This document shows positions 11,367 through 63,088 of a stretch of DNA of 64,000 nucleotides, piece by piece (position 1 is the stretch's first letter; each line of letters starts with the position of its first letter). This DNA is from Eledone cirrhosa (taxonomy: Eukaryota). A program made the translations under genes and the position numbers. Below the pieces are notes generated by a model, which had not been told where the DNA came from, made no database searches, and worked only from the letters and a program-made list of their open reading frames with translations. The stretch covers positions 14,508,001-14,572,000 of the forward strand of contig OZ024762.1 in assembly GCA_964016885.1 (NCBI GenBank). Direction: 5' to 3'.

Positions 11367-11409
11367 ACGTTGCTGATGATAGTTAATAAGCTTGAAACTA
11401 GTACAGCGT
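11367..11409 (+). ncRNA. Minimal type I hammerhead ribozyme
   Basis: acgttg CTGATGA t-agtt-aata-agct-t GAAA ctag TA cagcgt: stem I, intact core, palindromic stem III (ACTAGT), GUA triplet. Confidence 0.85.
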
Positions 11410-11786
11410 TCCTTTGTCAGTGTTGAACAAACGAGCAACGATGGTTGCTAGACACTACGGCTTAATACGGGATGTTTGTTTACAAACACACCAAGCATTA
11501 TAATAAATGTTCGGTGAATCCATACGTACATATATATATGTGTGCATGTATGTATGTATATATACATACTACTGTACGTCTGTATACATATATGTATGTA
11601 CGTGTACATACTTATATTTAAGTAACAGCCGTACTAAGAGTGGGAAATGAAATTTTGTTTCATTTTTTCCGTTTATCGTTTTCGGTGCACCCGGCCGATT
11701 GACCCACTCGATATACAGATTGGGCTACTCAGCCGTTAATATGCATAAGGTAAGTATATACGTTCAACAATCTGGCAGGAAGGTAT

Positions 11787-11829
11787 ACGTTGCTGACGAT
11801 AGCTAATAAGCTTGAAGCTAGTACAGCGT
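11787..11829 (+). ncRNA. Second hammerhead copy (GAAG variant)
   Basis: acgttg CTGACGA t-agct-aata-agct-t GAAG ctag TA cagcgt. The A15.1>G change probably impairs activity. Confidence 0.65.
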
Positions 11830-12032
11830 TCCTTTGTCAGTGTTGAACAAACGAGCAACGATGGTTGCTAGACACTACGGCTTAATACGGTATGTTTGTT
11901 TACAAACACACCGAGCATTATAATAAATGTTCGGTGAATCAATACGTACATATATATATGTGTGCATGTATGTATATATATATACATACTACTGTACGTC
12001 TGTATACATATATGTATGTATGTGTACAAACT

Positions 12033-58925: not shown

Positions 58926-59454
58926 GAGATTAGCAACACACCACAAAAGAACTGTGTCCTATAAACATGTAGAGAGGGAGACACAGTGTTATACACACAG
59001 ACAAGTACATATACACCGACACCAGTCTATATATATATATATGGGTGTGTGTGTGTGTCAGCTCAGCCGTCGGGGTCCTGACTTTTCATATATATATATA
59101 TATATATAAAGAGAGAGAGAGGAGAAAGAGAGAGAGAGAGAGAGAGAAAGAGAGAGAGAGAGAGAGGGAGAGAGAGAGAGAGAGAGAGAGAGAGAGAGAG
59201 AGAGAGAGAGAGAGAGAGGAAGAATTGATCCTAGTACTAAACTGGTATTTTTTTTTATTGACCCCGAATAATAGTATAGAAAAACTCTGAATTTTAACTT
59301 ACCCAAAATAAGCTTGGATATGGATGAACGTCACAGAATCCTCTTTTTTTTTTGCAGTCTATAATGAACAAGCAAAACGAAAAAAAAAAATGATAATGAA
59401 AAAAAAATTACAAAAACGAACACAAAAATTTTACACATGCGTGGTGAGGGTAAA

Positions 59455-61708
59455 GGACTGGGTAGAACAGAGATCAGGAGTTGTGTAGAACTGTGGACAT
59501 CTTGAGGACTGGATGAGAAGAACGGAGGTCAAGTAATCTAGAGGTCAACAGTTGAGTAGAACTGTGGACATCTTGAGGACTGAATGAAAAGAACAGAGGT
59601 CAAGTAATCTAGAGGTCAACAGTTGAGTAGAACTGTGGACATCTTGAGGACTGAATGAAAAGGACAGAGGTCAAGTAATCTAGAGGTCAACAGTTGAGTA
59701 GAACTGTGGACATCTTGAGGACTGAATGAAAAGAACAGAGGTCAAGTAATCTAGAGGTCAACAGTTGAGTAGAACTGGACATCTTGAGGACTGAATGGGT
59801 AGAACAGAGGTCAAGTAATCTAGAGGTCAACAGTTGAGTAGAACTGTGGACATCTTGAGGACTGAATGAAAAGAACAGAGGTCAAGTAATCTAGAGGTCA
59901 ACAGTTGAGTAGAACTGTGGACATCTTGAGGACTGAATGAAAAGAACAGAGGTCAAGTAATCTAGAGGTCAACAGTTGAGTAGAACTGTGGACATCTTGA
60001 GGACTGAATGAAAAGAACAGAGGTCAAGTAATTTAGAGGTCAACAGTTGAGTAGAACTGTGGACATCTTGAGGACTGAATGGGTAGAACAGAGGTCAACA
60101 GTTGAGTAGAACTGTGGACATCTTGAGGACTGAGTGGGTAGAACAGAGGTCAAGTAATCTAGAGGTCAACAGTTGAGTAGAACTGTGGACATCTTGAGGA
60201 CTGAGTGGGTAGAACAGAGGTCAAGTAATCTAGAGGTCAACAGTTGAGTAGAACTGTGGACATCTTGAGGACTGAGTGGGTAGAACAGAGGTCAAGTAAT
60301 CTAGAGGTCAACAGTTGAGTAGAACTGTGGACATCTTGAGGACTGAATGAGAAGAACAGAGGTCAAGTAATCTAGAGGTCAACAGTTGACATCTTGAGGA
60401 CTGAATGGGTAGAACAGAGGTCAAGTAATCTAGAGGTCAACAGTTGAGTAGAACTGTGGACATCTTGAGGACTGAGTGGGTAGAACAGAGGTCAGGTAAT
60501 CTAGAGGTCAACAATGAGTAGAACTGTGGACATCTTGAGGACTGAATGGGTAGAACAGAGGTCAAGTAATTTAGAGGTCAACAATGAGTAGAACTGTGGA
60601 CATCTTGAGGACTGAGTGGGTAGAACAGAGGTCAGGTAATCTAGAGGTCAACAGTTGAGTAGAACTGTGGACATCTTGAGGACTGAATGGGTAGAACAGA
60701 GGTCAAGTAATTTAGAGGTCAACAGTTGAGTAGAACTGTGGACATCTTGAGGACTGAGTGGGTAGAACAGAGGTCAAGTAATCTAGAGGTCAACAGTTGA
60801 CATCTTGAGGACTGTGGACATCTTGAGGACTGAATGGGTAGAACAGAGGTCAAGTAATCTAGAGGTCAACAGTTGAGTAGAACTGTGGACATCTTGAGGA
60901 CTGAGTGGGTAGAACAGAGGTCAGGTAATCTAGAGGTCAACAATGAGTAGAACTGTGGACATCTTGAGGACTGAATGGGTAGAACAGAGGTCAAGTAATT
61001 TAGAGGTCAACAATGAGTAGAACTGTGGACATCTTGAGGACTGAGTGGGTAGAACAGAGGTCAGGTAATCTAGAGGTCAACAGTTGAGTAGAACTGTGGA
61101 CATCTTGAGGACTGAATGGGTAGAACAGAGGTCAAGTAATTTAGAGGTCAACAGTTGAGTAGAACTGTGGACATCTTGAGGACTGAGTGGGTAGAACAGA
61201 GGTCAGGTAATCTAGAACAGGCATGTCAAACAAGTGGCCCGCGGCCCACATGCGGCTCTTTACAAGCACACTTGTGGCCCGCACAAAGGTTTTTAGAGCG
61301 CGAGCATGTTTTATCTTCGTAATATAAAATTAAAATAATTGTTTCTACTTTAGGCACAAGGCCAGCAATTACCCAGTGCATTACTGGTATTTTATCGACC
61401 CCGTAAGGATGAAAGGCAAAGTCAACCTCGGCGGGATTTGAACTCAGATCGTAAAGGGACGTAACTATGCTGGAAAGCATGGCGTCCGACACTCTACCAA
61501 TACTGCCAATACACCGCGCTGTGGATATATAAAATTAAAATAATAAATTGTAATGTGTGGCCCTCAGACAACGCATAGGTGACCCAAGTGACCCTCAGAG
61601 GAGCCTCAGTTTGACATGCCTGCTTTAGAGGACAACAATTAAATAGTTTAATAGAACAGAGGACTGAATGAGAAAATCAGGTCAGGTAATCTAGAGGTCA
61701 ACAGTTGA
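59455..61708. repeat. 71-bp minisatellite, about 25 copies, interrupted by a hAT MITE
   Basis: Unit GTAGAACTGTGGACATCTTGAGGACTGAATGAAAAGAACAGAGGTCAAGTAATCTAGAGGTCAACAGTTGA. Confidence 0.97.
61218..61622. mobile_element. hAT (Charlie-like) MITE containing a nested SINE
   Basis: 14-bp TIRs CAGGCATGTCAAAC/GTTTGACATGCCTG; degenerate 8-bp flanks ATCTAGAA/CTTTAGAG. The SINE (-) is flanked by a direct repeat ATATAAAATTAAAATAA. Confidence 0.88.
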
Positions 61709-63088
61709 AAACCTCTTAACGACATGAAAATGTTTACATGCCTGGGTCTTGGACACAGTTGTTTTTTTGTTTTGTCATTTTAAATAGCCAGCCTAACTAG
61801 ATGACCACTCCAGGGTGTCTCCTACGCCGTTACTATGATCACTTGACCTGCCCAGAACAAAAACACGCTGGATGGCATATCTATCTATTGTATGTAAAAT
61901 CCCCGCCATGTCTTTGTATTGTCCCCTTTTCTTGTGCGCCCTTGTGGCAAATAAAGAAATATATCTATCTATTTATCTATCTACTTATATACCTGTAAAC
62001 TAATATTTTTTTGTATTTTATCTGATGGAGCGTACCAAAATACTGTTGCCTTTGAAATATATATAATAAAATCTCTAAGTTTATCATATTTGTGGTATAA
62101 AAACGTTGGGGGTTGGTGAAATAAATCACTGCCAATACTGGAATTGAATAATCAAAACCGTAGCGGTATGTAGCATATCCAATCTCTCATATAATTTATT
62201 TGATGAAAACGTACTTAAACACCATTGTACCTTTGAAATATATATAATAAAATATATATTTTGATTTATGAGAATATTTTTCATTTATTAATATTTTGAA
62301 TAATATATATATATATAACGAAAGAAATGTGGTAAGGAACCAGGTGGACCATAACGCACCAAAGTACTCAATACTTAGGGTAGTAGAGTGGGTAATATAT
62401 ATATATTAAAATAACAGATTAGACAGATTGACTTTGTTAGTTTCAGAAGATCCCGTTAAGGGTGAAAGCAGCGATTCTTTACTTAAACTTTAATCTGTTA
62501 TTTTAATAAATATTTGCTCTACGGTTCTTATATATTTGATATATATTTATCCTTATCGAGCCCTCTTTGGATTTTAGTCTTCAAATTTATTATTATTACT
62601 ATATATATATATATATATATATATATATATATATATATATATATATATATATATATATATATATATATATATATATCAATAGTATTAATAAATGCGCGCG
62701 TGTGTGTGTGTGTGTGTGTGTGTGTGCATGTAACTATGTGTAACTCTAAAATTTTCACACACACAATGCATTTCCTATCTCAGTCTTGTTACTGCAATAA
62801 GTTCGATTTCCACACACAAGATCCTGGATTCTAACCTACCCTACATTTATCCTTTTTATTAATGTGTGTGTGTGTGTGTGTGTGTGTGTGTGTGTGTGTG
62901 TGTGTGTGTGTGTGTGTGTGTGTGTGTGTGTGTGTGTGTGTGTGTGTGTGTGTGTGTGTGTGTGTCTTTGGTTATATGTAGAACAATAAGATCTGCAGGC
63001 GAAGGCAACATACCTGCCTATTATCTATCAACCAACTAACCTACCTTTTAATCTTTACCTGCCCAGACCTGCCAACCTCTAAAAACCT

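Follow-up and report, generated by a model that had tools for sequence, protein, structure and literature searches.

What accounts for the hammerhead-like folds that crowd a single 64,000-nucleotide stretch of the genome of the octopod Eledone cirrhosa (assembly GCA_964016885.1, contig OZ024762.1, positions 14,508,001 to 14,572,000, forward strand)? A first-pass annotation of this stretch (hereafter the window, numbered from its first nucleotide) had proposed about 20 hammerhead folds from at least six unrelated repeat families, and had read them as Penelope-mobilised elements that target (TA)n. Here we report that the motifs are type I hammerhead folds with a short palindromic helix III, and that the folds are real. 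Most probably, they mark the 3' ends (pseudo-long terminal repeats, pLTRs) of Penelope-like retrotransposons, mainly of the Hydra type, which inserted into (TA)n as copies shortened at the 5' end and often inverted.

Hammerhead folds and their families

The window was searched with a descriptor comprising exact CUGANGA and GAAA, a paired stem II, a palindromic or paired helix III, UH and stem I, and the same search was run on 200 global and 200 local (150-nt) dinucleotide shuffles of the window. With stem II limited to 45 nt, 9 matches were found among the 35 CUGANGA cores of the window, against means of 0.02 (global) and 0.03 (local) in the shuffles and a maximum of 1, an excess over dinucleotide-shuffled sequence. 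Allowing a stem II of up to 95 nt gave 11 matches against 0.04-0.055, adding 47353+ and 39547+. This descriptor was tuned with the sites already in view; two earlier versions, tuned differently, had returned 5-8 matches against 0.01-1.2 in shuffles.

A hammerhead-like motif was present at all 16 coordinates that the first-pass annotation had listed, and its figure of about 20 is reached only when broken remnants are counted. Requiring CUGANGA, stem II, GAAA, UH and a stem I of at least four pairs, we found 10 intact hammerheads, with core position C3 at 11373+, 13018-, 27735-, 31836-, 31957+, 32779+, 45265+, 47353+, 52788- and 53994+. The other four of the 14 sites called intact are damaged: 11793+ (11787..11829) has the core GAAG in place of GAAA; 47700+ has AA at the UH site and a weak stem I; 53621+ (53618..53667) keeps an intact core, with a three-pair stem I and a SINE-like (short interspersed element) repeat in place of its 5' flank; and 57471+ lacks the 5' strand of stem I at an inversion junction. 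The two sites described as decayed, at 62014 and 62197, do have mutated cores (CUGAUGG at 62022+ and C3 to U at 62200+). Together, the 16 sites represent 13-14 insertions, the pairs 11373/11793 and 31836/31957 each being one insertion.

Self-comparison of the window yielded six families, designated A, B, C, D, T and the Penelope fragment. The earlier count of six is retained, but 9 of the 16 sites belong to family T, and the 13018 site shares its subtype. Family T, the TATTTTAT family of the first-pass annotation, additionally comprises 47594- and two core-less remnants. Its intact hammerheads lie at 27678..27743 (-; C3 27735, element about 27637-27830), 52732..52796 (-; C3 52788) and 53986..54051 (+; C3 53994, in the longest copy, about 53904-54181), and on both arms of an inverted pair at 31655..32055 (C3 31836-, long 3' end; C3 31957+, short 3' end). 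A second inverted pair, at 47547..47897, consists of 47594-, which ends at helix III and passes into (TA)n, and 47700+, which has the long 3' end. Two decayed copies (C3 62022 and 62200, 178 nt apart) occupy 62014..62303 (+). The core-less members, found by self-comparison, are a copy with its core deleted and its 5' part folded back at 52916..53115 (-) and a 3' remnant without the 5' core at 54241..54306 (-).

The remaining families are smaller. Family A forms a partial tandem at 11303..12040 (+), with a 420-nt period, about 1.76 units and 318 nt at 96.5% identity, which carries two hammerheads; the intact one, at 11367..11409 (+; C3 11373), has U.U at 10.1/11.1, an ACUAGU helix III and a predicted cut after 11403. 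This structure is a candidate for a retrozyme dimer or for a pLTR-type partial tandem. Family B is an intact hammerhead of the T subtype at 12969..13023 (-; C3 13018), with unrelated flanks, a AUAUAUAU helix III and a fold-back hairpin on its 5' side at 13102..13175. Family C, at 32775..32810 (+; C3 32779), is a textbook minimal hammerhead with an extra base after A9, G10.1-C11.1 and an ACGU helix III. Family D includes an intact hammerhead at 45259..45309 (+; C3 45265), with U.U, a three-pair stem II, a four-pair stem III (ACAG/CUGU) and an 8-nt loop, an inverted pair joined at the core at 57408..57531 (C3 57471+, without stem I) and, by self-comparison, a remnant lacking the 5' core at 41126..41172 (+). 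Helix III is fully self-complementary where it reads ACUAGU, AUAUAUAU, AUAUGUAU or ACGU, and is so at 12 of 16 positions in family D.

Several candidates were rejected. The 39547+ match, in a mariner remnant, surfaced only with the long-stem-II descriptor and was read as likely chance; the core-like match at 13156- is a product of the fold-back inversion at 13102..13175; 26878+ has a G at position 3 and a non-palindromic helix III; and 30716+ and 48148- were set aside.

The T subtype is defined by R10.1-U11.1, three pairs, a C.C mismatch, a long distal helix and the AUAUAUAU helix III. This main family combines the conserved C.C mismatch, present in 9 of 10 T-type copies, with an (AU)4 helix III. 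Covariation was assessed in these 10 copies (families T and B), from which the structure itself was drawn and whose kinship inflates the shuffle test. In this alignment, 87.9% of cells were paired, a level reached in 0 of 500 shuffles and compared with 35-56% in slid controls. Two-sided changes occurred in 11 of 19 pairs, and in 7 of 9 when stem II was taken alone; RNAalifold, unaided, predicted the same stem II. Hence, as had been claimed for the TATTTTAT family, stem II varies and yet stays paired. Stems kept by compensatory change around a fixed core were observed for families T and B, the copies of A, C, D and 47353 being too few. A covariance model of the T type recovered, at an expectation value (E) below 0.05, only its 10 training copies and 47594-. 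A DNA-pattern scan for family T gave no matches in metagenome and viral contigs; a looser pattern gave 8 metagenome and 3 viral matches, none with paired stems, which we ascribe to chance.

Insertion anatomy and the Hydra-clade fragment

The copies end in a manner that points to their mode of insertion. In family T, (TA)n begins 49-51 nt past the predicted cut in four copies with the short 3' end (by eye, about 57 nt in the 62200 copy) and 144-151 nt past it in three copies with the long 3' end. Of 24 published Hydra consensus sequences, 23 end either 30-70 nt (12) or 88-153 nt (11) past the cut (PMC8557442 files S1/S2), the same range as in the window. Three inverted pairs are present, and in both family T pairs one arm alone has the long end. 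(TA)5 lies within 270 nt downstream of 14 of 17 sites, against a background of 38% (P 3e-4, the sites being non-independent). The copies tested (families T, A, B, C and D) displayed 5' truncation, an inverted or partial-tandem arrangement and an optional tail, and no poly(A) or tandem tail shared with a long interspersed element (LINE) partner was seen among the window copies. An optional tail and asymmetric inverted copies are described for Penelope insertions (PMC8557442, fig. 2 legend). The inverted pairs, the 3' ends in (TA)n and the two fixed 3' ends are marks of Penelope-type insertion; together with the coding fragment described below, they support the Penelope-type mobilisation and (TA)n targeting that the first-pass annotation had proposed.

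At 8 of 17 sites, from two unrelated families, a splice-donor-like motif was noted 26-47 nt upstream of the hammerhead. Family A has AG|GTAAGT (11328-11336 and 11748-11756, +), and most family T copies that include the region have G|GTATGT (e.g. 31918-31926 + and 53945-53953 +). Penelope pLTRs hold an intron, and, going by these motifs, the hammerhead of families A and T may lie inside one.

A GIY-YIG endonuclease end is encoded at 46400..46855 (+; Pfam GIY-YIG, E 1.2e-5). Word-index protein searches with it found no relatives, and a full HMMER search found 3,974. It carries a CxCX5C linker, with CxxC ahead of the conserved GIY-YIG E and CxH behind the N, motifs that are marks of the Hydra clade (PMC8557442). 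Among the 150 best of the 3,974 relatives, CxCX5C occurs in 109, CxxC in 145 and CxH in 111; the five of these longer than 550 amino acids have DKT in four, DKG in none and RW[KR] in two. By eye, the endonuclease also resembles the published Hydra alignment (PMC8557442). Judged by these motifs, 46250-47511 is a 5'-truncated Hydra-clade Penelope-like element and, again by eye, belongs to a family other than Hydra-1_Obim; the reverse transcriptase (RT) domain is absent from the fragment and from the window. The first-pass annotation had noted a Penelope GIY-YIG fragment with its own hammerhead, and such a motif does follow the endonuclease at 47349..47460 (+; C3 47353), its predicted cut 54 nt before a (TA)18 junction. 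Folded alone, its 85-nt stem II is a bulged rod of -23.6 kcal/mol.

Among the 16 public runs listed, 12 contained part of 46250-47510, and no RNA dataset was listed as containing it. Of the words of the Hydra element, a share of 0.34-0.62 was present in runs of three organisms and small shares in those of six more, which suggests that the family is common to related species.

Explanations compared

By analogy with other Penelope elements, the GIY-YIG nuclease would nick (TA)n, and RT would begin copying inside the RNA, downstream of the ribozyme, from either of two start sites, which would account for the short end and for the tail about 95 nt longer. Copying would usually stop or flip 30-100 nt upstream of the ribozyme, and most copies would for this reason be stubs of 150-300 nt with the ribozyme at their centre. 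Cleavage would take place in tandem precursors of the RNA and would require either dimerisation via the palindrome of helix III or the assistance of a protein, whereas the copies dispersed singly would for the most part be inert passengers. On their own, minimal hammerheads cleave inefficiently (PMC4209133), and 8 of 9 retrozyme dimers assayed in Xenopus did not cut (bioRxiv 10.64898/2026.07.22.740005).

A number of observations weigh against an origin of the set as truncated, mainly Hydra-type Penelope ends. Neither the C.C mismatch nor the AUAUAUAU helix III occurs in any of 26 published Hydra rows (PMC8557442), so that the assignment of family T to a clade is tentative; family C resembles the general minimal type. 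The hammerhead at 47353 alone is contiguous with a Penelope open reading frame (ORF), and a tblastn search with 150 Hydra-type proteins found no other Penelope coding remnants in the window. Within 130 nt downstream, (TA)5 shows no significant excess (5 of 17 sites against 21.5%). The 27735 and 53994 copies, 83% alike, have their 5' start in common, as would be expected of a short element with defined ends more than of truncation at random. As for the 47353 hammerhead, its stem II is not more stable than shuffled sequence (z -0.94), an unconstrained fold of the region prefers another structure, and the long-stem descriptor that finds it also gave one likely chance match. On position, we judge it probable that this is the Hydra element's ribozyme.

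The shared 5' start also favours an account in which families T and A represent non-LTR retrozymes, or else SINE-like elements that are non-autonomous, each with its own RNA of about 290 or 420 nt that is cut by the hammerhead, circularised and copied in trans by Penelope enzymes. Family A offers further points in its favour: two hammerheads in a partial tandem that repeats head to tail every 420 nt, a cut-to-cut monomer that folds strongly (z -8.0, partly owing to its microsatellite) and a bulged stem I of canonical-like shape; moreover, retrozymes derive from pLTRs (bioRxiv 10.64898/2026.07.22.740005). However, the second core of family A is mutated, and family T copies are single or inverted, without unit-length tandems, the only head-to-tail arrangement in that family being the decayed 62022/62200 pair. 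Terminal redundancy was not found in family T, as its 3' tails are unlike its 5' leaders (1 of 15 comparisons below 0.05), and no unit-length go-back joint is listed in public reads on 31655-31897, a stretch without the 5' end. We regard this account as improbable for both families taken together, although sequence features make family A a fair retrozyme candidate and, through the two copies that share a 5' end, family T a possible short non-autonomous element. The families may be either distinct ribozyme elements of a non-autonomous kind or simply truncated pLTRs.

Movement by other machinery, either a microsatellite-targeting LINE or a DNA-transposon or fold-back route with the hammerhead as an inherited passenger, draws on the RTE-like and L2/CR1-like LINE remnants, the mariner remnant and the many fold-back hairpins that the window also holds, and on the lack of an attached ORF in five of six families. 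The inverted pairs, however, are asymmetric, centred within the element and endowed with two fixed 3' ends, as in Penelope insertions (PMC8557442), and the tails that a LINE partner would share are not seen, making such a route very unlikely. That the folds arose by chance in DNA rich in AT and in hairpins, and were then multiplied as repeats, would accord with the low-complexity A/U helix III and stem I of family T, with the chance-like long-stem-II match at 39547+ and with the 11 unrelated microbial and viral loci that the loose pattern matched without pairing. Set against full folds in six unrelated families, shuffle yields of 0.02-0.06 and the two-sided changes in 7 of 9 stem II pairs, this explanation is already refuted for the set as a whole and retains hardly any probability. 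Truncated Penelope-like ends thus remain our preferred explanation.

The ribozymes are likely unannotated, given that no Rfam match reached threshold and no octopod census was found in the literature searched. The Rfam hammerhead models gave no match at the gathering score in the whole window, the best being HH9 with 18.6 bits at the 11373 hammerhead against a gathering score of 52; none was listed at 32779 or 31836/31957, and by E-value the matches listed for the whole window (150 of 276) included microsatellite-driven microRNA matches. The C.C subtype with (AU)4 helix III and the 85-nt stem II were likewise not found in that literature, and Lunse et al. 2017 may already list such variants. 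The novelty implied for a Penelope hammerhead set as such does not hold, minimal pLTR hammerheads (PMC4209133) and a Hydra clade with an Octopus member (PMC8557442) having been described, and the O. vulgaris repeat library of PMC13282606 may already contain these families.

Copies beyond the window and genomic setting

Intact hammerheads number 140-156 per Mb in the window (9 or 10 in 64 kb). Published totals of about 9,000 hammerheads in Xenopus (PMC4209133), more than 6,000 in coral and up to 120,000 in axolotl (PMC7229834) correspond, with genome sizes, to roughly 4-15 per Mb. PMC4209133 also gives about 4,000 for coelacanth, and the window lies far above the genome averages of that study. 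Penelope-like DNA, in 190 families, makes up 6.83% of the O. vulgaris genome (PMC13282606), and element spans cover about 7.6% of the window, a comparison weakened by the difference in species and by the spans being hand-drawn. Given that share and stubs of 150-300 nt each bearing a ribozyme, the density is what would be expected of an octopus; the window is one region near a satellite, from which density is not extrapolable.

Four public runs (X2, X4, X7 and X14) were compared with 31655-31897 at 80% likeness. Matches were found in 6,663 contigs of X2, 47 of X4 and 3 of X7, and in 26,874 of the 12.47 million restriction-site-associated DNA (RAD) reads of X14, about half of them apparently from one locus. 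Family T thus has at least thousands of copies. In X2, summed depth was 0.7-0.8 million over the 5' core, as compared with 3.6 million immediately 3' of the cut; it peaks at helix III and the 3' flank and drops on both sides, with single long contigs at 5-13. As summed depth is not equivalent to copy number, and as reads rich in TA may have been filtered out, 10^4-10^5 copies is a rough reading. Opposite-strand joints were among those listed for this stretch, and unit-length tandem joints were not. Of the variant rows, 40 of 76 were listed, and the 36 outside that listing tell against leaning on the tally: 13 fell in the ribozyme and none on a core base. Among these 13, nine keep or restore pairing (including both halves of a U-A to C-G change, unphased), three affect the variable loop or a position next to it, and one would have to be matched by a partner change outside the rows listed.

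A bolder proposal can be advanced only tentatively, and we consider it rather doubtful: that this octopod lineage has a hammerhead density among the highest of any genome (on the order of 10^5 copies), chiefly through a short, so far undescribed element, non-autonomous and mobilised by Penelope, whose ribozyme has a conserved C.C mismatch in stem II and for which the (TA)n target sequence serves as dimerisation palindrome, beside a Hydra family with a functional 85-nt stem II. In any case, octopod families, all of which Rfam misses, are added to a known class. Should the density extend to the whole genome, cephalopods would offer a very large natural collection of variant hammerheads, and the two fixed 3' ends, ribozyme-centred truncation and C.C subtype of family T would offer a well-sampled system for the role of the hammerhead in Penelope transposition, which is still open (PMC8557442), cleavage being dispensable in vitro (PMC11167929).

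The window is AT-rich (38% GC), with 417 (TA)n runs of at least 8 nt beyond 10.6 kb. It begins with a 72-nt satellite (1-10560) and contains a 65-70-nt TA/CA-rich tandem array at 35150-38500 and a tandem array of about 58 nt at 59460-61220. Protein matches delineate the first four exons of a CFAP45-like gene on the minus strand (26083-25799, 17833-17675, 13843-13670 and 11249-10899), the last of which best matches CFAP45 of Octopus (64-67%) and Argonauta (54%), as would be expected of an octopod host that is likely neither of these species. Introns of this gene contain families A and B, and the other families are upstream of it; the family B hammerhead is in sense orientation, and family A, lying antisense, is separated by about 50 nt from the acceptor site of an exon. 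Outside the four mapped exons, 41018-41060 (-) and 32605-32720 (+) are short stretches that look like exons and have ends resembling splice sites.

A dispersed family lies between (TA)n runs, in inverted pairs, at 26720-26950, 27090-27250, 31436-31590, 32083-32140, 39960-40045 and 62395-62600, and the 26878+ copy, with its hammerhead-like fold, is possibly a seventh, decayed family. A further TA-flanked family, of fold-back hairpins and short partial tandems, occupies 39765-39945, 45680-46215, 52485-52640, 53115-53200 and 62325-62395; window scans found no hammerhead core in it. The decayed mariner at 38810-39710, with terminal inverted repeats and a Mos1-type helix-turn-helix, contains the 39547 chance-like match.

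Comparison with known systems

The pLTR minimal hammerheads of PMC4209133 occur in thousands per genome, in several families and mostly as single or opposite-strand copies. The window set resembles them in its type I core, its short palindromic helix III and the coexistence of several families in one genome, and its arrangement is similar to their single copies or opposite-strand pairs 100-700 nt apart. Family C matches their minimal consensus, whereas families T and B have neither the additional base after A9 nor the G10.1-C11.1 pair. One of the two supplement files of that study has no octopus entry.

Animal non-LTR retrozymes, too, are short repeats without coding capacity that carry type I hammerheads, and a derivation from pLTRs has been proposed for them (PMC7229834; bioRxiv 10.64898/2026.07.22.740005). 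The 420-nt period of family A is retrozyme-like, but most window copies are single or inverted, unlike the tandem retrozymes. The Poseidon element PAc of Anolis shares two 3' ends and an AT-rich target (Frangieh et al. 2024, PMC11167929); there, two internal reverse-transcription starts explain the two 3' ends, and the hammerhead needs protein help. PAc belongs to another clade, and its tail is 30-40 nt, against about 95 nt in family T.

The Hydra clade, with hammerheads, a (TA)n preference and a member in Octopus bimaculoides, Hydra-1_Obim (Craig et al. 2021, PMC8557442), shares with the window the C-terminal GIY-YIG motifs, a hammerhead near the 3' end and the (TA)n target. Its published hammerheads have U.U at 10.1/11.1 in 14 of 26 rows, a variant that is tolerated (PMC3088659), and ACAG/CUGU in stem III in 4 of 26; the former recurs in families A and D and the latter in family D. 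The 85-nt stem II of the window's Hydra element contrasts with at most 26 nt in these rows, the longest in the PMC8557442 table being about 54 nt, in a Selaginella element.

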